Positions 295 to 13,783 of a stretch of DNA of 13,874 bases are shown here, piece by piece; within the stretch, counting starts at the first letter, position 1; each line of letters begins with the position of its first letter. Source of the stretch: Bdellovibrionota bacterium. Its GTDB lineage: Bacteria > Bdellovibrionota_C > UBA2361 > OMII01. The stretch spans positions 1 to 13,874 of the forward strand of contig JBIJBE010000063.1 in assembly GCA_044345405.1 (NCBI GenBank), given 5' to 3'. A program made the position numbers and the translations under genes. The notes beneath the pieces were generated by a model. The model had not been told where the DNA came from. It worked only from the letters and a program-made list of their open reading frames with translations, and did not search any database.

Positions 295-2028
295 ATGAGT
301 ACGGCTCACATTATCACCCACGAAACAAGCACTCCTGATGCTCAGGAGTATACTGGCTCCCGACTTCTTCTCGAACTTTTGAAGCGAGAGAATGTCGACA
401 CGATATTTGGGTATCCGGGCGGAGCAATTATGCCGGTGTACGACGCGCTCTACGATTTCCGGGAGGATATTCAGCACATCCTGGTGCGGCATGAGCAGGG
501 CGCTGCGCACGCCGCTGAGGGGTATGCTCGAGCCAGTGGGCGAGTTGGCGTGTGCATGGCGACCTCTGGCCCCGGGGCCACCAATCTTGTCACAGGCATC
601 GCGGACGCGATGCTCGATTCCGTTCCTGTGGTGTGCATCACCGGCCAGGTCGCTCGATCCTTCCTGGGAACCGACGCTTTTCAGGAGACGGATATCATCG
701 GCATCACCGTGCCGATTACGAAGTGGAACTGTCAGGTGACGAGCGCGGAGGAGCTTCTCACGGCGATTCCAAAAGCGTTCGCTGTCGCGCGATCTGGGCG
801 GCCAGGGCCGGTTCTTATCGACATCACGAAGAATGCGCAGTTTGAGAAGGTAACGGTAGACCTCTCCAAGGCGCCTAAGGGGCGTTCGTTCGAATGTGAA
901 CATATCGTTGAGCTCTCAGGCTTACGTGAGGCGGCTCGTCTCATAAACGAAGCGAAACGTCCGCTCATGTTTGTTGGTCACGGATGTCTCATCTCCAACG
1001 CTCACGAGGAGGTTCGGGCGTTCGTGGAGAAGGCGCAGATTCCGGTTGCTTCTACCCTTCTTGGACTAACCACACTTCCGACCGAACATCCTCTCTATGT
1101 GGGAATGCTCGGCATGCACGGAAATTACGGACCGAACGTGCTGACTAATAAAGCAGATGTTATTATTGCGGTAGGTATGCGCTTCGACGATCGAGTAACG
1201 GGGAAGCTCTCGGAGTATGCCCGTGACTCCAAGATCATCCACATTGATATCGACCCAGCCGAGTTGAATAAAAATGTCCAGATCGCTGTAGGGATCGTGT
1301 GTGACGCGAAGCAGGCGTTGCGCGCTCTTACTCCTCTCATCAAGCGTGAGCCAACCAAGGAGTGGTTCGAAGAGTTCACTGTCTGCCATGAGCGTGAGCA
1401 CGAGAAGGTTATCTCTCGTGACCTCGCTCCTCGAGATGGATTGCCGACTATGAGCAAAGTTATCGGGGATCTCGGAATCGTAACGAAGGGAGAGGCGATC
1501 CTCGTGACCGATGTAGGGCAACACCAAATGGCAGCAGCTCGGTACTATCCCTTTAAGAATCCGAATACGCTCCTCACCTCTGGTGGCCTCGGTACCATGG
1601 GATACGCCCTTCCCGCGGCGATGGGAGCGGCGGTCGGTGTGCCACATCAACGTGTCCTCGCGGTTATCGGCGATGGTGGATTTCAGATGACCCTGCAAGA
1701 GCTTGGAACGATCGCGCAGTGGAAGTTGCCGGTGAAGATCGTCATCCTGAACAACAACTTTCTTGGTATGGTGCGGCAGTGGCAGCAGCTCTTCTTTGAT
1801 AAGCGGTATTCGTCAGTGGAGATGGAGAATCCCGACTTCGTCAAATTGGCCGAGGCCTACCGAATTCCGAGTAAGCAGGTCGCGCGGTGTTGTGACGTGC
1901 GGTCGGCGGTAACCGAGATGTGGGAGACCCCTGGTCCCTACCTCCTTGAGGTCGTGTGCGAAAAGGAGGAGAACGTATTTCCGATGATTCCAGCCGGCGC
2001 GTCGATCGCTGATATCCGTTTAGAGTAG
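295..2028 (+). CDS. ilvB: Acetolactate synthase, large (catalytic) subunit, biosynthetic type
   Basis: 577 aa; motifs IFGYPGGAIMP, VRHEQGAAHAAEGYAR, TSGPGATN, GMLGMHG, RFDDRVTG and the ThDP-binding GDGGFQM...NNNFLGMVRQWQ; RBS AGGAAAGG at 281-288. Confidence 0.98.
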   Translation: MSTAHIITHETSTPDAQEYTGSRLLLELLKRENVDTIFGYPGGAIMPVYDALYDFREDIQHILVRHEQGAAHAAEGYARASGRVGVCMATSGPGATNLVTGIADAMLDSVPVVCITGQVARSFLGTDAFQETDIIGITVPITKWNCQVTSAEELLTAIPKAFAVARSGRPGPVLIDITKNAQFEKVTVDLSKAPKGRSFECEHIVELSGLREAARLINEAKRPLMFVGHGCLISNAHEEVRAFVEKAQIPVASTLLGLTTLPTEHPLYVGMLGMHGNYGPNVLTNKADVIIAVGMRFDDRVTGKLSEYARDSKIIHIDIDPAELNKNVQIAVGIVCDAKQALRALTPLIKREPTKEWFEEFTVCHEREHEKVISRDLAPRDGLPTMSKVIGDLGIVTKGEAILVTDVGQHQMAAARYYPFKNPNTLLTSGGLGTMGYALPAAMGAAVGVPHQRVLAVIGDGGFQMTLQELGTIAQWKLPVKIVILNNNFLGMVRQWQQLFFDKRYSSVEMENPDFVKLAEAYRIPSKQVARCCDVRSAVTEMWETPGPYLLEVVCEKEENVFPMIPAGASIADIRLE

Positions 2029-2043
2029 CAGAGGGAGTGTTTT

Positions 2044-2589
2044 ATGAATCAGCCAATAACGTTTCTTGTATGGACCGACAACAGTCCCGGAGTTCTTCTT
2101 CGACTGACCACCCTTTTTACTCGACGAAAGATCAATGTCGAGAGCCTCACGGTTTCAGCGACCGAGCAGGAGGGGGTCTCGCGCTTTACGGTTGCCATCT
2201 CCACTGATCCGATCATTGCGGCAACGATTGGACGTCAAATTGAGCGAATGATTGAGGTTCGTCGGGTATTCGTCTTTGCGGAGCCTGACATCGTTCACCG
2301 AGAGGTTGCTCTGGTACGTGCTCGCCTTGATGAAGACGCGGAGAGCGCGTTGCCAAAGCTTTTTGTTGATTGCAAGATCGTGGAGCGCGGACAGCGTGGA
2401 ACGCTCGTACAGTTCACGGGTACGGAGGGTGAGATATCATCGCTTCTTTCGCACCTTGAGCCGCACGGGATCACTGAGTTCGTTCGCTCAGGGCGAATCG
2501 CGGTTACCCTTGCTGGAGAGTATGACAACGATCTTACAAAGTCGTTGCACGATCTACGGCCTGGTGCGTCGGAGGGACCGGAGGTGTAG
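2044..2589 (+). CDS. ilvN: Acetolactate synthase small (regulatory, ACT-domain) subunit
   Basis: DNSPGVLLRLTTLFTRRKINVESLTV ACT motif and EFVRSGRIAV near the C-terminus; 15 bp after ilvB with a GAGGGAG RBS. Confidence 0.95.
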   Translation: MNQPITFLVWTDNSPGVLLRLTTLFTRRKINVESLTVSATEQEGVSRFTVAISTDPIIAATIGRQIERMIEVRRVFVFAEPDIVHREVALVRARLDEDAESALPKLFVDCKIVERGQRGTLVQFTGTEGEISSLLSHLEPHGITEFVRSGRIAVTLAGEYDNDLTKSLHDLRPGASEGPEV

Positions 2590-2601
2590 GTGCGCTTATC
2601 C

Positions 2602-2690
2602 CGTGTATCGAAGTAGGACTATCGCGCTGGAATGTCTCACATGGCGAAGCCCTACTTCGATACACGACATGGCGACCGTCCTCGGTCGCC
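2602..2690. repeat. REP/REPIN-like inverted repeat plus a small hairpin
   Basis: CGTGTATCGAAGTAGG (2602-2617) is the perfect reverse complement of 2651-2666, and the arms contain GTAGG. GGCGACCG-TCCT-CGGTCGCC hairpin at 2671-2690. Confidence 0.7.
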
Positions 2691-2749
2691 GACCTAATAA
2701 CGTTTCACGGATGACCGAGACGTTGGACGAGTAAACTGCCCTTCCTTGA

Positions 2750-4027
2750 CTAGTACAGCCCAACTATCGCATACCCAACCATCGGTAGCGTCTGACGAGC
2801 GGGTCCGTCGCGGAAATAAATCAGACGAGATGTTTTACGTGGAGCTCTATTGAGCATTGACGTAACGAGAGGAACCCAACGCGACGTAAGGGCTGCCACT
2901 CGATGTTTATACTGGTACTCGCCTGGATTTTTCTAGCATTAAGGAATAACCGCTCCCATCACCGGATTAGTTGGCGTGCTCAAGAGTGTTAGATAGCGTT
3001 ACACAACCGGGGGATCGGCGGCTTGAAACATTCTGCAGGCCACGGGACATCCTGGTGCCCTTGCTTCGTAAGTCGATAACATTCAGCGCACCGCCTGATG
3101 AACGCCCGAAAAGTCTCTAAAAACGCCAAGCGAATTTTCTTGCAGGAGCCGTACATAAAGACCTTTCTCTCCTTGTTCTTAGGCACATGTCTATCATCGA
3201 CGATGAACCCCTCAATGTAGCGTGAGGGCTCTTTCTTTGGTGCGAGGCGTGCCTCCTCATGCCGAACCTGAGCGATGATCCTCTGGTGTATCTTCTCGAT
3301 CTTGATGGGGTCTACGATGTTGAAAGCTTCAAGCCACTTAAGGGGCATAACACGGATTGTGTTACGCTCTCTGACGAATGATTTCTGTTGAAGCGATTGA
3401 ATTAGGGTTCGCTCTTCAGACAGTCCCGGATTCTCCTGAGAGAGGGAAGTAATGTCAGTTGCAAGAATCCACGCAACCTCCTTTTCAACCACGGCGTTTA
3501 CATCGGCGGGAACAGATATGAATTCCTTCCAGGTGTTACATCCAGCATACGCATCAATAGAGCGAACGAGTCCTGCTTGCACGGGATTGAGGTAGGTGTA
3601 CACCACTCGATCAATAGCAGCCTCTAGGTCGAGCACCTCACCGATCGTAGTTCTGGTATCCCACAGACGAAGCTGGGGAAGATTGAGAAGGCGCTTTAGT
3701 AAATCAGTGAGGCGTTTCTTAAGCTGCTCATGGAAGCGGGTGAGAGCCGAACAGTCTAGGGAAAAGAGCTGTGTGTGCAGATGGTTGCTCATCCAGACGT
3801 ACCCGCACACAATCACAGCCTCAGAAAGAAGAATTCGTCCCATCGTGCTTTCAATCAGAAGCGCTGTTAGCGCCCGTGCCGGGAGAGGTAGTCCCTGAAG
3901 GGACCGAAAGCACAGGTCGTACATTTTCTTACTTCGAAGCATTCGTCGTCGGCGCATGATGATTCATACATCGAGATTATGCTGTGAGTGTTGTGTCATC
4001 TTCGATGAAAAAGTTGGCCTGTACTAG
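2750..4027 (-). mobile_element. Putative element carrying a Y1-HUH transposase between terminal inverted repeats
   Basis: CTAGTACAGCCCAACT (2750-2765) versus the reverse complement of 4012-4027, CTAGTACAGGCCAACT: 15/16 match. CTAG is outermost at both ends, and the repeats enclose only the transposase gene. Confidence 0.6.
2989..3957 (-). CDS. RAYT-like / IS200-superfamily Y1 HUH transposase
   Basis: HUH motif GYVWMSNHLH and catalytic-Tyr motif YTYLNPVQAGLV, typical of REP-associated tyrosine transposases; long C-terminal extension (322 aa in total). Confidence 0.82.
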   Translation of the reverse strand: MRRRRMLRSKKMYDLCFRSLQGLPLPARALTALLIESTMGRILLSEAVIVCGYVWMSNHLHTQLFSLDCSALTRFHEQLKKRLTDLLKRLLNLPQLRLWDTRTTIGEVLDLEAAIDRVVYTYLNPVQAGLVRSIDAYAGCNTWKEFISVPADVNAVVEKEVAWILATDITSLSQENPGLSEERTLIQSLQQKSFVRERNTIRVMPLKWLEAFNIVDPIKIEKIHQRIIAQVRHEEARLAPKKEPSRYIEGFIVDDRHVPKNKERKVFMYGSCKKIRLAFLETFRAFIRRCAECYRLTKQGHQDVPWPAECFKPPIPRLCNAI

Positions 4028-4353: not shown

Positions 4354-5505
4354 ATGTTGATCCTAACAATCATAACCATTCTTTTTGGCATAGCGGTTCG
4401 AGTGGCGCTGTCGATGCATGCCTGCGGGTCTTTTGATATCGCCCAAACGTTCTTTTGGGGAACCCTCATATGTGAGCGTGGATTTGTCGAAACGTACGCC
4501 ACGGTGTCCCCGTATCCATCGCACGCACCTTTGGGATTTGCGCTGCAGGGGTTATTTGCGTTCTTGGCCGGAGGGGTTGAAGAGAGATTTGGAGTAGTGT
4601 TTCGTCTCATCACCTCCGCAAGCGATCTGCTAACCCTAGGTATTCTCGCCCGAATTTTTTGGCGGAGAGATAGAAGAATCTCGATGTGGCTCGTCATGGC
4701 TTGGGCAGTTATGCCCTACATCGTCATTCAGGCATCTTTTCACACGAATTTGGATCCTCTCGTGGGGCTCTTGTTACTAGTGTCGGCTCTGCTCGATCGC
4801 AAAAGACCTGGGTTCTCCGGAGCGGTCCTAGGATTCGCGGCGTGCATAAAGATACCTGCTCTTTTTCCTCTTGCTGCTCTTGCCGCATATCATTGTGCTC
4901 GAGGGAGAGATGAGGGGTATCGCTTCTGCTGCGGAGCCTCGATTCCTATAGTGCTGTTCCTCCTTTCTCCGATATTCTTTATTCCTAATTATGTATCAAT
5001 TCTCTTTTTGCGCTATCGGGGAATTCAGGATTCGTACGGGCTGTGGGCTGTATTTCCTGGTCTTGAGGAGGTTAATTGGCTTTCCACGATACTCCCTCTA
5101 GGACTTATGGTGCTCGCCGCATTCATCGCTTGCTGGAGGGTACGCCACGGGCAGGGGGTAGAGTCCGCAGAGTTGATGATGTGCGCTCTTATGCCGGTGA
5201 TGTTCGCTAGCAGGGGGTTCGGTATTCAGTACTTCTATTGGATCGTACCTTTGTTGGCGTTAGCCTCGGGTCCACTATGGGCATACGGAGTGGCGTTACT
5301 CATTTCCCTATCTCTCCTCAATCTTTCAATGATTTGGGAGCTCTTGAATGCCGAGCGTTGCATGGGACCTCTCGGATACCGGCATCTAGACTGGCTAGGT
5401 GTCGTCTCTGGTGGAGATATAACGACCGAGGCGGAGGTTCTTTTAGCCGCGGCCGTTTGGGTTCTTTGTACTACTCTTTGGGCAAAGCTACTCTTGAGAA
5501 TGTGA
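4354..5505 (+). CDS. Polytopic membrane glycosyltransferase, GT-C fold (GT87/DUF2029-like)
   Basis: Many hydrophobic segments; Asp in the first loop (GSFDI), YPSHAPLG, HTNLDPLVGLLLL, LGFAACIKIPALF and IQYFYWIVPL motifs. The stop codon coincides with the recN-fragment junction. Confidence 0.7.
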   Translation: MLILTIITILFGIAVRVALSMHACGSFDIAQTFFWGTLICERGFVETYATVSPYPSHAPLGFALQGLFAFLAGGVEERFGVVFRLITSASDLLTLGILARIFWRRDRRISMWLVMAWAVMPYIVIQASFHTNLDPLVGLLLLVSALLDRKRPGFSGAVLGFAACIKIPALFPLAALAAYHCARGRDEGYRFCCGASIPIVLFLLSPIFFIPNYVSILFLRYRGIQDSYGLWAVFPGLEEVNWLSTILPLGLMVLAAFIACWRVRHGQGVESAELMMCALMPVMFASRGFGIQYFYWIVPLLALASGPLWAYGVALLISLSLLNLSMIWELLNAERCMGPLGYRHLDWLGVVSGGDITTEAEVLLAAAVWVLCTTLWAKLLLRM

Positions 5506-6189: not shown

Positions 6190-7060
6190 CCTCCGCACCA
6201 TCTTAGTATTCGTTGAGGAGCTCCATCTGAGCACGCTCTGAACCAACTCCTGAATGCCCCACATCTATTCTGCCCGCATCTAACACACACCATCCCCTCC
6301 CCCTCCCGAATCAGCCTGCATGCTCAGGCGCTACATATGGGAGAAGGCAAAGGAGAAGCTCCAACACTACAGGAGGCGTACACCGGAAGCCTCGGTGCTC
6401 TACCAGATCGTCTACCACTCCAGGGATGACCTCCAGCTCCATTGGGAATCCAGGCTCCAGCACCAGTATGGGTGCTTACGCGACGAGGTGATGAAAACCT
6501 TCGACGAGTACCTGAATTGCGGCATCCTCGCGCACGGCGCCGCACGAGTGTATTGCGATGGATGCAAGCACTCGCTCCTTATCGCCTTCTCCTGCAAGCG
6601 CAGAGGGGTGTGTCCCTCATGCGGGGCAAAGAGAGCGGTAAAGTTCGCTGAGCACATCTATAGCGAAGTCATCGACGACGTCCCTCATCGCCATACCGTC
6701 TTTACCATCCCGAAACGCTTGCGAGTCTTCTTTAAGTATGACCGTAAGCTTAATACCATCCTCTTTCGAGCCGCTTGGGGAACACTATCTCAGGTCCTCG
6801 GCATTGACGAGCGTGAACTCGCCGCTATCTTTACCGTACAAACTGCTGGGGAATCATTAAACTATCATCCACACCTTCACGGACTTCTAGCTGACGGATT
6901 CTGGAAGGACGGCGTCTTCACTAGGTTTTCAGAGGTAGACCTCAAGGTAATCGAGGAAGCATTCGCCGAACGAGTACTTGCGCAGCTCCACAAACAAGAG
7001 CTTATCTCTGACGATGATGTGGCGCAGATCTTGTCGCAAGAACACACGGGGTTCGGCGTA

Positions 7061-7091
7061 CCTGTCCCCCGTAGCCTTGTGCGAAGGGGGA
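7061..7091 (+). repeat. 31-bp palindromic insertion, copy 1
   Basis: CCTGTCCCCCGTAGCCTTGTGCGAAGGGGGA; removal restores ...HTGFGV-WLGDPF... (boundary ambiguous by 1 nt). Confidence 0.88.
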
Positions 7092-7230
7092 TGGCTCGGA
7101 GACCCATTCCACGACAAAGAGAGTAAACAATTCGTCGCTCGCTACATCGAACGCGCTCCACTATCTCTTGAGAAACTCTCAATACAAGATGACATCGTTA
7201 CCTACACCACTAAGGACGGCGCGGCTCATG

Positions 7231-7262
7231 CCTGTCCCGCCGTAGCCTTGCGCGAAGGCGGA
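7231..7262 (+). repeat. 32-bp palindromic insertion, copy 2
   Basis: CCTGTCCCGCCGTAGCCTTGCGCGAAGGCGGA; removal restores ...DGAAH-E-FDALEFLAAL... Confidence 0.88.
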
Positions 7263-7869
7263 AGTTTGACGCTCTGGAGTTTTTGGCGGCGCTTTCGTGT
7301 CATGTACCGAAGACCTATGAATCAATCACAAGATACTACGGTCGCTACTCCTGTAGGCGACGGGGCGAACGCGCTAAACTCTCCCCTCCCCCAGACGATG
7401 AAACACAAAGCGACTATAGGAGAGAGTTCACGAGGAGCTGTTGGGCCGCGTGCATCAAGAGAATCTACGAAGTTGATCCTCTCGAGTGCCCCAAGTGCAA
7501 AGCGCAGATGCGTATTATCTCCTTCCTTCAGGATGCGCATTCAATCAAGGACATCATGAAATCTCAGGGGATCGCTGACTTCCGAGCACCTCCTCCCATC
7601 CCAAAGTTCATCGATACCTCTCACGCTATCGATGAAATAGCCTCCTACGACTCCTTTGAGCCGTCGCCTGATGATTTCTAAAACCCGCTTCCTCTGTGAC
7701 GGAGCCGGTGGAGTGTCGATAAAATGCTACTTTTCGCGACTTAGCTCACCCTTGCCCACTCCGCTTGAACTCTAGAAAACCTAGCTTGGCGCCACTAACC
7801 ACGCATCCCGGCCCTTCTTTGACCAATCGCCCCGGAGACATCAACAGTCCGCCACAGCAGTTCAACTAC

Positions 7870-8022: not shown

Positions 8023-8328
8023 TTACCAACCAAACAGGACGGGAGCCCAGGTAGAAGCGCCGATCGCTACCGCCCCACCAAACGTGGCCGCCATCGCTCT
8101 CCGGAAGAAGGAGCCTGCCTCTCCGACACACAGTGCCAGGCCAGCGATAACTATTGCTCCGATGATAATGGCCTGAGCCGTCGGGCCTTGTAGGCTTGCA
8201 AGTAATTGTCGCAGGGGATTCTCCCAAGGCATCGCCTGGGCGTGCGCCTCAGTGGTAACGGTCAAATAAGCGAGCGCGAAGCAGGTTATCGCGAATCGAA
8301 AGTCACGGTTGATTCGTTTTTTTTGCAT
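8023..8328 (-). CDS. trbC: Conjugative pilin TrbC/VirB2
   Basis: Signal peptide ending in AHA, then MPWENPLRQLLASLQGP, two hydrophobic segments and GEAGSFFRR. Start placed at ATG 8328 (AGAGGGA RBS), 101 aa. Confidence 0.9.
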   Translation of the reverse strand: MQKKRINRDFRFAITCFALAYLTVTTEAHAQAMPWENPLRQLLASLQGPTAQAIIIGAIVIAGLALCVGEAGSFFRRAMAATFGGAVAIGASTWAPVLFGW

Positions 8329-8839
8329 AGCTTTTGTTCCCTCTGTATGCGCACACAGTGCGTTGTTAGGGGGAACAATAGCTGAGCTCGGCTCAGGGAT
8401 AGTGGGCACCTGAATGAGGCAGCGTGAAAACGTCCCATATGAAATAGCTGCCCTGTTGCATTGTGAGGGCATCTTATCTGCGGGTAAGAACGCCCCAACT
8501 CGTGGGATGGTGTACCTCCAATCGAGCCGTGATTCGACTTTCGAGCAGACCGTCGAGCACTCGCCTGGCGATAGGATAGGCGCGTGTCGTAAGTGTCAAA
8601 GACTGGTAGCACGAAGCTTGCAGATTTCGGTACTTTCTATTATGTGCGGGCCAGCCTAGCCACGACCCGGATAACCTACGAGATGAAGGCTAATGCAAGC
8701 ACGAATGGGTAAAACTATGAGACATACAAAGAGCAAAGTCGCATCTAATGAAACCAAAAGCTCAAAAATAAAAACTGAGATGTCGCCATCGAAAACAAAC
8801 CAAAGCTTGGGTGGACTGCTATTTGCGCACCGGCCATTC

Positions 8840-9178
8840 TCAGAAGCCACTGACTCCAAGAGTATCTGCATCCAGCAGCTTCTCTAGTTTTGTCACCTGC
8901 TCCCAACATTCGCTTTTAAAGAGTTTGTGATAAGCGTCGATGGGGTGAGTAGAGCGATGCGCAATTTCGCCCGCCTTTTGCAAGTCAGCCGCACGCATAT
9001 AGTAAATTAAATAATCCCCATCCGATAGACTCAGCAAAAAAGCTGACTCAACAAGAACACCTTCATCTTCGAGGGTCAAAACCACTTCCGCTTTTCTATC
9101 GGACAGTGTTCGCGCCCATTCTCGAGCTCGTTCTAACGAACCTAGACGAAGCTTTATTAAGAAACATGAAACCTGCAT
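8840..9178 (-). CDS. DUF6176-like protein of unknown function
   Basis: AREWA...RKAEVVLTLEDEGVLVESAFL...DYLIYYM...STHPIDAYHK pattern recalled for DUF6176. ATG at 9178 preferred over the track start at 9199. Confidence 0.7.
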   Translation of the reverse strand: MQVSCFLIKLRLGSLERAREWARTLSDRKAEVVLTLEDEGVLVESAFLLSLSDGDYLIYYMRAADLQKAGEIAHRSTHPIDAYHKLFKSECWEQVTKLEKLLDADTLGVSGF

Positions 9179-9438
9179 GTGTTGTCTACAATGATTCAAT
9201 AGTAATTAAGAGGACTCCGCCAAACAAATGACTCTTCTACCAATAACAAAGGTTACTGTCCGAAAACGGACCCTTGTAAGTCAAGGTAGGATTTGTACCT
9301 TTGCAGTTTGGAGCATTCGGCCTCCAACCAGCTCCACAAATACTCTAGACCGCCACAATTCTAAGTGTCTGGGGGATGCCCCTCACTACCTGAAACCTGT
9401 TTCTGACTAGCGATGCACCGATTTCATGGCTGTGGTGG

Positions 9439-10233
9439 TTAGCGCTCCCCTCCACCTGCTAAGAAACCATTAAAGGCGAAACGAATTGGTAGCTCGTCGT
9501 TCTCCCTGTAGCAATTGAATACCTCCCTCACCTCAAGGTCTATCTGCGCGGCGTGTTTTGACCAAGGTACGTATGAGAAAGAATGCGTAAGGTCAAGGAA
9601 TCGAGACTCGGAATACGGGATAGTAATGTATTCATGCCAATGCTTGAACCCTGAGGACACAAAGAAGCAGTCAAGGTTCTGGGTTTTGACGAAATCAGGT
9701 TCTATAAGATTGCCTGTTTCCTTGGTGTACTTGGCTAGGGTCGCATCAAAGTCTCGCATGAATGGATTTTCTGTTGCAAAAGCGTACCAGGTGAGAAAGA
9801 CATGACCATTGGGGTTCAATATTCGATCAAATTCCCGACGGGTAGCCGCTTGCTCAAAAAAATGAAACGATTGTGCTGCCGTAATAAGATCAACACTGCC
9901 ATCTGGTAAACCTGTCGATTCCGCCGACCCCTTCAAGGCCTTAAGGCCATCCCTGTGGATCAAGGAACGCATGTCGTCTCCGGGCTCTATAAAGGACACA
10001 TCGGCTCCGCGATGCACTAAGTGGCGGCCCAACTTTCCAGTACCAGCACCGACATCCGCAACACGCTTTCCCGCAAAAGCTCCGGTTTCCCCCTCAAGCC
10101 AATCAATAAGCTCCCTGGGGTAGTCAGGGCGAGCATCATGGTAGAATTCTTGCCTACCATTGAAGCTCTCCACAGGATGAGCTGTTCCAGAATAGCCCCT
10201 TCCAGGTTTAATATCTTGTGCGAAATGAGCCAT
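9439..10233 (-). CDS. Class I SAM-dependent methyltransferase
   Basis: RPDYP, motif I VADVGAGTGKL, GSAESTGLPDGSVDLITAAQSFHFF and RILNPNG. Confidence 0.93.
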   Translation of the reverse strand: MAHFAQDIKPGRGYSGTAHPVESFNGRQEFYHDARPDYPRELIDWLEGETGAFAGKRVADVGAGTGKLGRHLVHRGADVSFIEPGDDMRSLIHRDGLKALKGSAESTGLPDGSVDLITAAQSFHFFEQAATRREFDRILNPNGHVFLTWYAFATENPFMRDFDATLAKYTKETGNLIEPDFVKTQNLDCFFVSSGFKHWHEYITIPYSESRFLDLTHSFSYVPWSKHAAQIDLEVREVFNCYRENDELPIRFAFNGFLAGGGER

Positions 10234-10379
10234 ATGCTGTCTCGTTTGATAGTCGTTGTATTGTTAAACAAATGTTACGAAATACTCATTAGCACAGCGG
10301 AACGAGGATGAGAGCGACGAATACTCGCTATTCTGTTGTTGGTCGCTTCCCATGTCATCCCCAAGAACCACTACAGCCT

Positions 10380-11363
10380 TTAGAAGAACGGATCGATTTG
10401 GTTGTTATGGCGCTCCCGAAAATCAGCCGGTTTTAAGCTCGATTCGCAGAAGGCAGACACAACCGAGAAATCCGAACGACTTATTATAGGCGCAATGAAC
10501 AATTGCCTCGCACCCTCTCCTAAGACGCGAAGAACGGTGACATCCACTGGGTCTTCTCGCTCTAGGTCGAGGTTACTCTGCGGGATTTGTCTTGTTACCT
10601 TTCCCAAGAACTGCTCTTCGGCCTTGGCGAAGCCACCTGCAACGTAGCGCTCGTATCTACCATTTCCCGCATCTGAGTTGTAAGCAGGGGCCTGGTTTCG
10701 CGACATTGAGTCAAACACCATGACGGCCTCTAGGAATGCCTTGTCAGCAGCCCTTCCAAGCGTACGCGCCATTGCGGACCCAACACACCAAAGCGACCCC
10801 TTCCCCTTAAGCGTTACGAGACAGAAGGGAACGGAAGGCTCCTCGTCCACTGTATAGTATTCTGCGACTATTCCTTCACCTGCTAGGCGCTCAGTCTTAA
10901 AGAGTCGGAGATGCACATCGTCTTCCCACCAGAATCTGGCGAGGACGTGACGTTCGCAAAGTTCCAGGACGGCTCTTTCCGATGCGTCATCGATACTTAC
11001 TCCGTACGCCAATCCAGTCGCATCACTTTTTGAACCCTTTTCCCTGAAACCCAACATCACTGAACTAGCCGCAATTGTGATTTGTTTTGAAAGATCGGGC
11101 CACGCAAAGGCCGGAAGCATCGACTTCGGATCGACCATGCCACTGCACGCGGGATAGAACGACCAGAACCTTTCGAGGAACTCAAAATGCGCAATGCGTT
11201 TAGCTTTAGAAGCATCATCAGACAAACCAAAGCCGATGATGTTGAGGCTCTCGCCACTGTCGCGCGACAGGGAGAGCCCTTCCTTTGCTATAAAGTAACC
11301 ATGAGGTCTGGCCGTTACCGAGACTGCGGTCGTAGCTGGTAGATCAGTTGGGAGGCGGTTCAT
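10380..11363 (-). CDS. Stand-alone YcaO-family protein (ATP-dependent backbone amide activation)
   Basis: YcaO ATP/Mg motifs GFG....A..IAHFEFLER, ATGLAYG....A...AVLELCERH and GSA.......AADKAFLEA; C-terminus DPFF; start overlaps the upstream stop (ATGA at 11360-11363). Confidence 0.85.
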   Translation of the reverse strand: MNRLPTDLPATTAVSVTARPHGYFIAKEGLSLSRDSGESLNIIGFGLSDDASKAKRIAHFEFLERFWSFYPACSGMVDPKSMLPAFAWPDLSKQITIAASSVMLGFREKGSKSDATGLAYGVSIDDASERAVLELCERHVLARFWWEDDVHLRLFKTERLAGEGIVAEYYTVDEEPSVPFCLVTLKGKGSLWCVGSAMARTLGRAADKAFLEAVMVFDSMSRNQAPAYNSDAGNGRYERYVAGGFAKAEEQFLGKVTRQIPQSNLDLEREDPVDVTVLRVLGEGARQLFIAPIISRSDFSVVSAFCESSLKPADFRERHNNQIDPFF

Positions 11364-12361
11364 TGCGGCTCCATGAGTGCAGCTTGGCGCAAAGTGGCGA
11401 CAACTTTCTTACCCGCTTCCGTGAGCCGGGCATGCCTCGCTACCGTTTCATAGCCCCTCTCAAATCGAGACAATGCCTTCTCGTATTCGGTATGAGCAAC
11501 GTCTAGCCCTGACGCCTCATTCCACTTTCTGAAAACTCTGGCCATCCTACTTAGGACAAACGTAGCATGGAATATTCCGTACATTGGCCTAAGATCCGCA
11601 CGAATTGGTGCGGGAAAGCGCTCCTCGTCGGAATTCAAAACGAGTCGGTCATGCATCATTATGCCATGTAAGTGGAGGTGTGCTCCTTCGTGAACTATGT
11701 GTTCGATGTAGTAGGCAACCTTCTCCTCTTCACTCAAATCTTGCTCGGGGATCCTAATATAGATCTTTCCAAACGCTCTCATGCTGGTGATACCAACTAG
11801 AACGAGTCCATCGAAGAGAACTATGTGGCTTGTATATTCCTGTATTTCTTCGTAGGAGCCCTCATCGACTTCCTTGATGATACGTAAAGCCTCTTCAACA
11901 TACTTGGATTGAACGTCCACCTCAATTTCACTAAGCGGGTGGACTGTTGGCATCTCACCTTGCTTCGACCGAGGCCCCTCCGAGCTCAATACATAATCCA
12001 ATATGGAGCTATCGGAAGGAGCCGACTCATCAAAAGTTGTAATTGCGAACGAAGAAACTGCAAGCTGCTCCTCCGGATAACGGGACAGGTCTACCAGCGC
12101 CTTCTTGAGGCCGGCACCGTCGCCGCTAGCAAGGGCTCTGAGTAGCTTTGCGTGAAAACCATACACGTCAGGGCTTAGTGCATCGTTAGAGCTCTGCAGT
12201 CTACTTAGTTTGTCAGAAATTTCGTGTAACGGAACACCTATGATGTCCTGCGCTCGCTCCACCAATCCAAGGAGCTCGTTCACAAGACTCCGTTGCAAAT
12301 GAGTGTGCAAGATGTGTGACATTCCAGGGGTTGGTAGTGATGAATATATGTCTTGGTTCAT
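11360..12361 (-). CDS. HExxH-motif peptide-modifying enzyme (aKG/Fe-dependent beta-hydroxylase type)
   Basis: IVHEGAHLHL followed by FPAPIRADLRPMYGIFHATFV, matching the family pattern S-P-x-R-x-D-x-R-P...H-A; upstream GITSMRAFGKIYI. Confidence 0.87.
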   Translation of the reverse strand: MNQDIYSSLPTPGMSHILHTHLQRSLVNELLGLVERAQDIIGVPLHEISDKLSRLQSSNDALSPDVYGFHAKLLRALASGDGAGLKKALVDLSRYPEEQLAVSSFAITTFDESAPSDSSILDYVLSSEGPRSKQGEMPTVHPLSEIEVDVQSKYVEEALRIIKEVDEGSYEEIQEYTSHIVLFDGLVLVGITSMRAFGKIYIRIPEQDLSEEEKVAYYIEHIVHEGAHLHLHGIMMHDRLVLNSDEERFPAPIRADLRPMYGIFHATFVLSRMARVFRKWNEASGLDVAHTEYEKALSRFERGYETVARHARLTEAGKKVVATLRQAALMEPQ

Positions 12362-12372
12362 GAATGCCCGTT

Positions 12373-12400
12373 AAAAAGCTACGGGGGCAAGCCCCCGTAG
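12373..12400 (-). terminator. Stem-loop with U-tract between the precursor and modification genes
   Basis: Minus strand reads CTACGGGGG-CTTG-CCCCCGTAG-C-TTTTT; it ends 11 nt before the HExxH ATG. Confidence 0.8.
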
Positions 12401-12419
12401 AGTTGGAGTAGTCCCAAAA

Positions 12420-12659
12420 TCAAGCCATTTGGATGTTGGTTGTTTGACAAGTAGCAGCGACCGCAGCGAGATAAGACTTACTGAGCTCTCTAACGTCAGC
12501 CGCCTTAAAGTCTCTAGGGTTATGATTGGCTAAAGCATCGGATAAGGTTTGCTTCCCGCTCCCAACATTCATAGAAGCCGAGCGCGACCCATTTCCATTA
12601 AACATTTCACCACTCAGTTTCGGTCCTTGTTGTCTTCCTGTAAGCGTTGCGTGTGACAT
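12420..12659 (-). CDS. Putative RiPP precursor peptide (79 aa)
   Basis: Small ORF at the head of the cluster; GGAG 11 nt upstream of the ATG; leader-end motif ELSKSYLAAVAA resembles ELSxxELxxVxGG; Cys/Thr-containing tail TCQTTNIQMA. Confidence 0.75.
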   Translation of the reverse strand: MSHATLTGRQQGPKLSGEMFNGNGSRSASMNVGSGKQTLSDALANHNPRDFKAADVRELSKSYLAAVAATCQTTNIQMA

Positions 12660-12870
12660 ATGTCGATTATCTCCGTTTCTATCGGATCCTTAAGCAGATC
12701 CTCACTTAGGTTCGCTGAGTAACAAGGACTGATACCGCAATCAAGCGGAAACTGCTTTTCTGATTTCATCACTGAAGAGGGGATGGATTAACTTATGGCA
12801 ACACCACCATACACGTTGTCGATGCTACCGGTCCCATGAGGCCTTTCACTGGGTAAATATCTCTCCCCAT

Positions 12871-13291: not shown

Positions 13292-13783
13292 TCATCCACA
13301 CCTAAAAGTTACTAATTCATAGGCTTCAATAATCCTCCGCGACCGTTCAGTTGCGAATGCGTGAATGTTAGGGTCAAGCTGTGCAACCTTGTCTGGATGA
13401 TTTACCTGCAAAAGCTGCCGGTATCTGGCATTGAGTTCGGCCTCCGTGGCATCTCGGCTAATCCCAAGAACATGATAGGGATCGTTTGGATCCTCTGTAG
13501 GTTCGGCGTGATTTTCTTCTCCTCTTTGAGACTCTTCCTTACGCGAGGTTCGGAACGCATCGATCAAGGCTGCACAGACGCGATAGATTCTACGAACACG
13601 TACAAACACCGCTCGAAGCACGGTGCCTAGGAGCCCAAGCGCCGCCGACCCGACGATAAGGGCTATCACTCCCACAAAGAGGTAGGGGAGTACCGTGCCA
13701 AAAAACGCACGGTACTTGATAACGATGCCAAGTGGCCAAAACAGGAGCAGGAAGTGCGAGCTATCTGCGGATAACGCGAACAC
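13292..13783 (-). CDS. Membrane-anchored J-domain (DnaJ/DjlA-like) protein; start uncertain
   Basis: N-terminal hydrophobic segments; C-terminal DPYHVLGISRDAT...YRQLLQVNHPDKV...IIEAYE with the HPD motif. Confidence 0.88.
   Translation of the reverse strand: MFALSADSSHFLLLFWPLGIVIKYRAFFGTVLPYLFVGVIALIVGSAALGLLGTVLRAVFVRVRRIYRVCAALIDAFRTSRKEESQRGEENHAEPTEDPNDPYHVLGISRDATEAELNARYRQLLQVNHPDKVAQLDPNIHAFATERSRRIIEAYELVTFRCG

Follow-up and report, generated by a model that had tools for sequence, protein, structure and literature searches.

Tiarins, described by Travin et al. in December 2025, are trifolitoxin-like Trojan-horse inhibitors of aminoacyl-tRNA synthetases (aaRS) (bioRxiv 10.64898/2025.12.02.691738). 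As set out in the available part of that preprint, trifolitoxin inhibits ArgRS after trimming by PepN, and tfx-like clusters encode a precursor with a conserved Gln, the preceding residue corresponding to the specificity of a cluster-encoded, duplicated aaRS; one scaffold is aimed at different aaRS by a single-residue change. Immunity comes from GNAT acetyltransferases or from resistant aaRS, a cluster ArgRS having been shown to confer resistance, and the clusters were mined via, and are defined by, TfxB/TfxC, SagB-like FMN dehydrogenases with a RiPP recognition element (RRE) (bioRxiv 10.64898/2025.12.02.691738). Here, we relate these systems to a stretch of 13,874 bp (the window) that makes up a whole contig of a 3.59-Mb Bdellovibrionota genome, which is 99.4% complete. 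By its sequence, the minus strand of the window carries a cluster for a peptide made on the ribosome and modified after translation (RiPP), and this cluster belongs to a widespread, uncharacterised family whose core consists of a short precursor, an alpha-ketoglutarate (aKG)-HExxH oxygenase and a compact YcaO protein (hereafter the module). We favour, with moderate confidence, the combined reading that this family makes tiarin-like Trojan-horse aaRS inhibitors and that the window product is aimed at the cysteinyl-tRNA synthetase (CysRS), a target predicted because Cys precedes Gln in the window precursor (ATCQT).

The likeness between tiarins, as far as the available preprint text describes them, and the HExxH-YcaO module extends over several levels. 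In both, the precursor is short, has a leader motif of aliphatic/acidic type and bears a conserved Gln near the C-terminus, and both occur in many phyla, Legionella and archaea among them. In tiarins and in relatives of the window module alike, the residue before the Gln corresponds to the specificity of the cluster aaRS, which is duplicated elsewhere in the genome, and GNAT acetyltransferases and MATE exporters recur. What differs is the core enzymes, which are TfxB/TfxC in tiarins and the aKG-HExxH and YcaO proteins in the module. TfxB/TfxC is absent from the window, and TIGR03605, the profile of SagB-type dehydrogenases (presumably the same as IPR020051), found nothing in the window genome nor in four of five other module genomes; the fifth has one match, on another contig.

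The first-pass annotation of the window had placed five co-oriented genes on the minus strand, and all five open reading frames (ORFs) were located where it had put them: a 79-aa precursor gene (12420-12659), an aKG-HExxH Fe/2-oxoglutarate peptide oxygenase of 333 aa (11360-12361), a compact stand-alone YcaO of 327 aa (10380-11363), a class I S-adenosylmethionine (SAM)-dependent methyltransferase of 264 aa (9439-10233) and a DUF6176 protein (8840-9178). Its gene identities were borne out by family profile scores, including hidden Markov model (HMM) scores above cut-off for both core enzymes, the YcaO only marginally so; the ATGA overlap of the HExxH stop with the YcaO start, by which the two genes are translationally coupled, can be read in the sequence; and the stem-loop that it reported behind the precursor gene is a real hairpin by folding statistics. 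It was also right about the missing partners, since domain scans of the window ORFs found no E1/ThiF, TfuA, SagB-type dehydrogenase, radical SAM, protease or exporter domain.

To place this arrangement among its relatives, we draw on two collection scans with the HExxH alignment, which gave 74 genome loci and 80 metagenome loci. A crude gene caller recovered the HExxH gene in 140 of the 155 sources (the window included), and the counts leave out the remaining 15, which are mainly loci of high GC content (L008, L010 and L019 among them); merging copies at 95% identity then gave 118 non-redundant HExxH groups. A YcaO of the window clade adjoins the HExxH gene in 35 of these 118 groups (hereafter module groups). 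By tblastn, 22 of the 74 genome loci have a YcaO-like gene beside HExxH, to which the family HMM adds L012, L016 and L025. The hosts include Bdellovibrionota, Parcubacteria, Chlamydiae, Streptomyces, Nocardia, Legionella, cyanobacteria (Okeania) and the archaeon Natrialba, the closest relative being a second Bdellovibrionota genome (locus L002, 69% identity); a plasmid collection contained no YcaO match and only distant HExxH domains. In the relatives, a short ORF lies directly upstream of the HExxH gene on the same strand and encodes a leader with an acidic F-[DE]-x-[IV]-x-[DE] block and a Gln near the C-terminus, followed by 1 to 17 more residues. The order small ORF-HExxH-YcaO, whose conservation the first-pass annotation had proposed as the test of its own reading, is therefore found in distant organisms.

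Within an alignment of 17 seed precursors, the Gln is invariant and accompanied by the F-[DE]-x-[IV]-x-[DE] block, the combination of core Gln and aliphatic/acidic leader motif known from tiarins; its counterpart in the window is Gln72, directly after the specificity residue Cys71. With an HMM made from 17 non-Cys ORFs of the genome loci, we searched 34,303 small-ORF tails from the other loci and the window. Each of the eight matches at E < 0.01 directly precedes an HExxH gene and shares its strand; one (L097) matches by construction, being a copy of the seed locus L004, and the first match away from an HExxH gene appears at E = 2.6, which is chance level. The window precursor itself (12420-12659) has no family match in profile scans and is recognised by the place that it shares with the same-strand ORFs upstream of HExxH in relatives. 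It combines a long leader with a Cys-type core ending ...SYLAAVAATCQTTNIQMA (ATCQT) and is 54% identical to the L002 precursor. Both begin with MSH, despite one 16-residue indel and two smaller indels, which supports the long 79-aa reading. Together with L002, L003, L092, L093, L094 and L110, the window forms a divergent Cys-type subgroup with a common ...SYL-x-K-x-A-A-T-C-Q-T-[ST], in the alignment of which T70, C71 and T73 are invariant; the L093 and L110 members score 0.06-0.1 with the general HMM. That the window precursor belongs to the wider family is suggested by a chain of similarity, running from the window and L002 to L092, L093 and L094 (SYL...AATCQT) and from these to the non-Cys precursors of the type ...SYL...Q.

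The genes beside the module point to a meaning of the residue before the Gln. CysRS is found beside it in L002, L003, L092, L094/L095 and L110, MetRS in L018 and L032, and ValRS (NF009687, 918 bits) in L015. Wherever aaRS and precursor can both be read, the former matches the residue before the conserved Gln/Glu (7/7 loci): five Cys precursors (...ATCQT.../...ATCETS; L002, L003, L092, L094, L110) accompany CysRS, one Met precursor (...HTMQSS; L018) accompanies MetRS and one Val precursor (...SWVQIS; L015) accompanies ValRS, while L032 and L095 stand outside this count, their precursors being off the contig. Cys-, Met- or Val-type aaRS occur near 7 of the 35 module groups as against 2 of the 83 other HExxH groups (Fisher p = 0.003), one of these two being L094/L095, whose precursor is of the Cys type. 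A second synthetase copy was present elsewhere in four of the five genomes checked, with two CysRS in each of the L002 and L003 genomes and two MetRS in each of the L018 and L032 genomes. These figures derive from Cys, Met and Val queries and from Pfam scans that took in some of the neighbours; among 40 larger neighbours scanned, no further aaRS type came to light, and in the available DNA around the loci no LeuRS, AlaRS, PheRS or GluRS stands beside the L-Q, A-Q, F-Q or E-Q precursors. On comparing five cluster with three housekeeping CysRS, we found eight columns, not mapped to the Cys pocket, in which all cluster copies depart from an invariant housekeeping residue. By identity the cluster copies are not one clade, the L003 copy being 53% identical to the housekeeping copy of its own genome.

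Other neighbours resemble the accessory genes of tiarin clusters. Of 54 small neighbours, six belong to GNAT, more than to any other family, and GNATs were located in L005 (divergent, directly upstream of the precursor), in L009 (two) and in L103; MatE or MFS exporters recur beside modules, and a C39-ABC exporter was also seen. We infer by analogy that the near-C-terminal Gln (rarely Glu) is the modified residue, that the residue before it names the inhibited aaRS, and that producers protect themselves by a second, presumably resistant aaRS, by a GNAT or by an exporter. As a separate observation, L104 contains a pair of TldD/PmbA-type metalloprotease genes (2019-3353 and 9178-10662); one of them comes directly after YcaO, the second some 3.6 kb upstream of HExxH, and the module region of L104 also includes a MatE exporter and a DDE transposase.

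The neighbouring synthetases could instead be biosynthetic, supplying aminoacyl-tRNA for a tRNA-dependent step or acting on the peptide, in which case the product need not inhibit an aaRS at all. Cluster aaRS can indeed serve tRNA-dependent biosynthesis, for which the available part of the tiarin preprint names valanimycin as an example (bioRxiv 10.64898/2025.12.02.691738), and the resistance of the module aaRS is itself a presumption. Nevertheless, such a role appears quite improbable to us: 28 of the 35 module groups have no aaRS nearby, so it is not a core enzyme, and the amino acid concerned is already encoded in the precursor. Moreover, GNATs and exporters take the place of the aaRS, as they do in tiarin clusters, where the cluster ArgRS gave resistance.

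Several observations weigh against the reading of the module products as aaRS inhibitors. The 28 groups without an aaRS count against it as well. The five Cys-CysRS cases come from related loci, so that the independent support amounts to about three events (Cys, Met and Val), and the ValRS example, with its copy count, comes from a genome flagged as unpublished (L015), in which a second ValRS was not confirmed, the next best match being 28% identical. L093, although Cys-type, has no aaRS within 10.4 kb. Domain scans of the window ORFs found no aaRS, GNAT or exporter, and the single CysRS of the window genome is of housekeeping type, its identity being 65% with the housekeeping copy of the L002 genome and 39% with the L002 cluster copy; the self-protection that the model needs was therefore not identified in this genome. 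The non-Cys HMM missed the window precursor among its 34,303 tails. In the L003 precursor Glu replaces Gln, which argues against any chemistry needing the carboxamide nitrogen. According to the available text on tiarins, the structure of the Gln-derived trifolitoxin fluorophore is unsettled, and the Gln-derived warhead is still unsolved in structure and biosynthesis (bioRxiv 10.64898/2025.12.02.691738). Finally, for every member of the module we infer the chemistry of the compound, its binding and its inhibitory effect by analogy.

Turning to the core enzymes, the product of 11360-12361 is by sequence a member of the aKG-HExxH oxygenase family and a predicted Fe(II)/2-oxoglutarate hydroxylase of a precursor residue. 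It scores 85.4 bits against TIGR04267 (aKG-HExxH-type peptide beta-hydroxylase; cut-off 40) over residues 155-323, and its gene is the only one in the genome to match this profile. A 24-sequence HExxH profile matches the solved ChlH domain (8s5f; 1.3e-15, residues 151-324), with the HE..H and P.R.DLRP.G..HA.FV blocks lining up and H224, E225, H228, R254, R258 and H265 invariant in all 24 homologues. A metalloprotease role was considered and rejected, the protein falling in the oxygenase family by both TIGR04267 and the ChlH match. The same catalytic domain, at about residues 151-324, is shared with the described RiPP enzymes ChlH/ChlBH, BpmH, PflC/PosC and PesO, which act on RiPP precursors and count Gln among their known substrate residues; the N-terminal 150 residues match no family and set the window protein apart from them. 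In the accessible portions of two reports, aKG-HEXXH enzymes beta-hydroxylate Gln and can cleave backbones oxidatively (PMC12636437; PMC13060819). The partners described for this family in the sources available are radical SAM cyclophane synthases, MNIO, an MNIO-nitroreductase fusion and Asn-synthetase-like proteins, none of them a YcaO. The predicted complex of the window HExxH protein with its precursor has a median score of 0.21, against a mark of 0.32, which counts neither for nor against an interaction.

A full-text literature search, subscription-only papers not covered, likewise found no paper on an HExxH-YcaO pairing, the works retrieved concerning other HExxH partners, and in the main text of the tiarin preprint, as far as available, the terms 'HExxH', 'CysRS' and 'cysteinyl' do not occur (bioRxiv 10.64898/2025.12.02.691738). 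The view of the first-pass annotation that no characterised cluster has a precursor-HExxH-YcaO layout agrees with the outcome of this search. Its proposal of a new RiPP class survives in part: the module is conserved and its enzyme pairing is one for which we found no paper, but it is not free-standing in function, the rule that ties precursor to accessory genes being the tiarin rule. New here is the link of HExxH and YcaO enzymes to tiarin-like logic; the precursor/aaRS rule itself comes from tiarins.

YcaO enzymes use ATP to activate peptide backbone amides. The identity of the window YcaO (10380-11363) is marginal by sequence and clear by its modelled fold. Against PF02624 it reaches 26.8 bits (cut-off 25.7), with only residues 111-229 covered, and against TIGR03604 (SagD) 17.7 bits (cut-off 219). 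A 17-sequence profile of module YcaOs matches the Methanocaldococcus jannaschii YcaO MJ1094 best (6pe3, 2.3e-9), followed by TruD, MusD, LynD and McbD. With the AlphaFold (AF2) model (predicted local distance difference test, pLDDT, 86; predicted template-modelling score, pTM, 0.88), all 41 Foldseek matches in the PDB at E <= 0.001 are YcaO proteins, with template-modelling (TM) scores of 0.49-0.63 when normalised to the query. E61, E64, E134, E137, R138 and E212 are invariant in the 17 module YcaOs, which end in DPF[CF], and the two E-x-x-E-R motifs align with those of MJ1094; we take these conserved Glu/Arg motifs to be the acidic ATP/Mg-binding nucleotide site. The best profile and fold matches are therefore stand-alone YcaOs, namely MJ1094, of methanogen McrA thioamidation, the M. 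kandleri YcaO (6cib, 2e-11, TM 0.61-0.63) and McbD, and the window protein is like them in being compact and in having two E-x-x-E-R motifs. It differs in that identity is just 11-17%, and no TfuA, E1-like or dehydrogenase partner is encoded in the window. A canonical azoline cluster of the thiazole/oxazole-modified microcin or linear azoline-containing peptide kind was rejected, as the window ORFs include no E1-like/Ocin-ThiF/RRE or SagB partner and the genome no TIGR03605 match.

It could be argued that the product is an ordinary RiPP, azoline-type or hydroxylated, with the YcaO cyclodehydrating Cys/Thr of ATCQTT, the HExxH enzyme hydroxylating a side chain, the methyltransferase methylating the peptide, and the aaRS of relatives unrelated to the target. 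The window core Thr-Cys-Gln-Thr-Thr consists of classical azoline substrates, the window has no aaRS, and the YcaO-like TfxE of trifolitoxin has been proposed, in the part of the preprint available, as a thiazoline maker (bioRxiv 10.64898/2025.12.02.691738). However, the YcaO is kept in modules with no Cys, Ser or Thr at the conserved site (...LMQGD, ...PMQED, ...HLVQIK), X-Gln being the sole conserved feature of the core, and the aaRS type follows X in 7/7 readable loci, with the aaRS being duplicates. We therefore regard an ordinary azoline product as unlikely.

If the family does make tiarin-like aaRS inhibitors, the pathway could run as follows. The hairpin behind the precursor gene would cause the precursor to be transcribed in excess. 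The HExxH enzyme would oxidise the conserved Gln, most simply by beta-hydroxylation, as its relatives PflC/PosC do to Gln, and the coupled YcaO would use ATP to activate the Cys-Gln backbone amide for cyclisation, the ring formed being either an oxazoline that incorporates the new hydroxyl or one of amidine/imidazolone type. The first-pass annotation had raised the possibility of a beta-hydroxyl installed by HExxH and cyclised by YcaO, for which the conserved Gln is now a specific candidate residue. Alternatively, the variable tail after Gln might be removed oxidatively, with the YcaO then acting on the new terminus. The heterocycle derived from Gln would take the place of the adenylate, and in the target cell aminopeptidases would trim the peptide to the free Cys amino group and so release the warhead. 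Any one specific chemistry for the pathway should be taken as doubtful at best. The same logic is known from microcin C, a Trojan-horse inhibitor of the aspartyl-tRNA synthetase, in which, on the account given in the available part of the tiarin preprint, trimming of a peptide carrier by aminopeptidases releases an aaRS-blocking warhead and immunity arises by acetylation of the free amino group. In microcin C, the E1-like adenylyltransferase MccB acts on a C-terminal Asn, and only AspRS-type targets are known; the window cluster has no enzyme homologous to MccB.

A wider proposal, which we put forward as tentative and more probably wrong than right, is that HExxH and the compact YcaO form a minimal two-enzyme route, unrelated to TfxB/TfxC, from X-Gln to a heterocycle mimicking an aminoacyl-adenylate. 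Programmable aaRS inhibitors would then have arisen twice, the window product would be a CysRS inhibitor, and DUF6176 would be a new immunity protein replacing the resistant aaRS or GNAT.

The two remaining genes of the window cluster deserve attention in this light. The methyltransferase (9439-10233; Methyltransf_11, 6.6e-13) is 79% identical to the one at the same position in L002, and we would class it, by analogy, as an accessory gene for tailoring or self-protection. The DUF6176 protein scores 101.1 bits against PF19673 (cut-off 27; profile positions 1-105 of 109). Its start is probably the ATG at 9178, giving 112 aa, and not the TTG at 9199 (ORF 8840-9199), because the Pfam match and the homologues begin at the former. 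Its model (pLDDT 94) shows a dimeric alpha+beta-barrel fold, most like those of fucose/rhamnose mutarotases, LsrG, ABM and OAC (polyketide) cyclase in the PDB. The first-pass annotation had counted both genes as parts of the cluster; they are present, but with a methyltransferase in 5 and a DUF6176 in 4 of the 35 module groups they are not part of the core. DUF6176 adjoins the module in those four groups as against none of the 83 other HExxH groups (with a further partial tblastn match in L031), it co-occurs with Cys, Val and Met precursors, and in L004 it occupies the place where the related locus L009 has a GNAT; this module-specific distribution hints at an accessory protein, a candidate for immunity or tailoring. 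DUF6176 (4 groups) and aaRS (7 groups) overlap in none of the 35, where about one overlap is expected by chance, which is only a hint that the two are mutually exclusive. As the window genome has no second CysRS, and no GNAT or exporter beside the cluster, the methyltransferase or DUF6176 may provide its self-protection.

The surroundings of the cluster raise the question of whether it is active. A TrbC/VirB2 conjugative pilin gene (8023-8472, minus strand; PF04956, 2.3e-16), which gives a mobile-element context, and an IS91-type transposase (6320-7126, plus strand; Zn_Tnp_IS91 plus only the start of Y2_Tnp) lie beside it, G+C is lower over the cluster, and the cluster is present in just 2 of 61 related genomes, its own included; for these reasons it was probably acquired horizontally. 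DNA homology to L002 is limited to 9464-12509, from the C-terminal half of the precursor through the methyltransferase, and beside this shared block L002 carries CysRS upstream while the window carries DUF6176 downstream instead. Upstream of the precursor the contig continues for 1.2 kb, and the missing partners of the window cluster may lie beyond its end. It might be that the cluster is carried along silently or in decay by a mobile element, without the CysRS or exporter partners that it once had and without an active product. This would fit the flanking pilin and transposase genes, the homology to L002 ending at the edges of the precursor-to-methyltransferase block, the rarity in related genomes, and the lack of aaRS, GNAT and exporter from the window together with the one CysRS in the genome. 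Yet all four shared genes are intact, three have the same length as in L002 (333, 327 and 264 aa), and the catalytic residues of HExxH and YcaO are kept, while a weak further sign comes from RNA-library contigs of four studies that match the precursor gene at 100%. On this evidence decay seems very unlikely to us.

Four metatranscriptome runs, from four studies, supplied these contigs of 235-290 nt, which match the window at 100% and together cover only 12405-12699. All four stop at 12405-12448, just short of the hairpin between the precursor and HExxH genes (12379-12400, minus strand), a terminator-like structure with a 9-bp stem (7 G-C pairs), a 4-nt loop and then CTTTTT. The 64-nt stretch around it folds with z = -3.6, and none of 200 shuffles folds equally well. 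The hairpin is a probable attenuator that yields surplus precursor mRNA. The RNA runs are represented by contigs, each with a small share of the stretch, which do not show strand, ends or expression level and whose uncovered parts mean nothing. Because such contigs cannot prove a transcript, they give a weak hint of expression and of the precursor as an abundant short mRNA.

Should the tiarin-like reading be true, a further family would share the precursor and immunity logic of tiarins with just two unrelated core enzymes, and the reservoir of such inhibitors would widen to Chlamydiae, candidate phyla radiation bacteria, Bdellovibrionota, Legionella, actinomycetes, cyanobacteria and haloarchaea. 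A precursor with two enzymes would offer a much simpler system, usable in E. coli, for the chemistry of the Gln-derived warhead, and targets would become predictable from sequence, with the window and its Cys-type relatives pointing to CysRS. The aKG-HExxH-YcaO pairing and DUF6176 would also gain a first biological context. Other residues also stand before the conserved Gln, namely Ala (L016:6798-6932), Phe (L096:2399-2515), Thr (L098:3-167), Glu (L104:6764-6880) and Leu (L024, L029 and L112), and if the rule holds, the A-Q, F-Q, T-Q, E-Q and L-Q precursors predict inhibitors of AlaRS, PheRS, ThrRS, GluRS and LeuRS; at none of these loci did the available DNA show an aaRS of the fitting type.

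At some HExxH loci that lack a window-type YcaO, the precursors carry Glu in the conserved position (L017:6823-6981, L021:3828-3953 and L100:1851-1970; L023:6801-6992 and L113/L114). One such type, from Bacteroidota, ends ...SMET[YF]EGE[YV] and adjoins a 300-324-aa protein of no assigned family; the other, from Actinomycetes, ends ...VETWDGDN[GA] and adjoins a JmjC-type oxygenase. In these loci, a precursor of like kind may have been combined with yet other partners. An FAD_binding_2 oxidoreductase lies downstream of the module in L014 (9623-11086), L016 (10941-12428), L020 (8996-10465), L022 (8583-9986) and L025 (10873-12354), and L020 additionally carries a 955-aa TfuA-YcaO fusion. Eight Xenorhabdus/Photorhabdus loci (L030, L033 and L035-L040) have a different HExxH subfamily, followed by an MFS transporter and a DUF6817/HD-domain protein, and no YcaO.

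Elsewhere in the window, a 193-aa ORF (6978-7559, plus strand) overlaps the end of the IS91-type transposase, which looks split or frameshifted. Two ORFs without a Pfam match, of 322 aa (2989-3957, minus strand) and 383 aa (4354-5505, plus strand), sit between ilvBN-like genes and the transposase; over 4500-5500 the AT skew is strongly negative. A membrane protein with a C-terminal DnaJ domain is encoded at 13292-13783 (minus strand), some 0.6 kb upstream of the precursor. In L121/L122, a DnaJ-domain protein (L121:3470-5062) is found two called genes away from the HExxH gene, about 1.9 kb upstream, and the occurrence of such proteins near both is possibly a coincidence.

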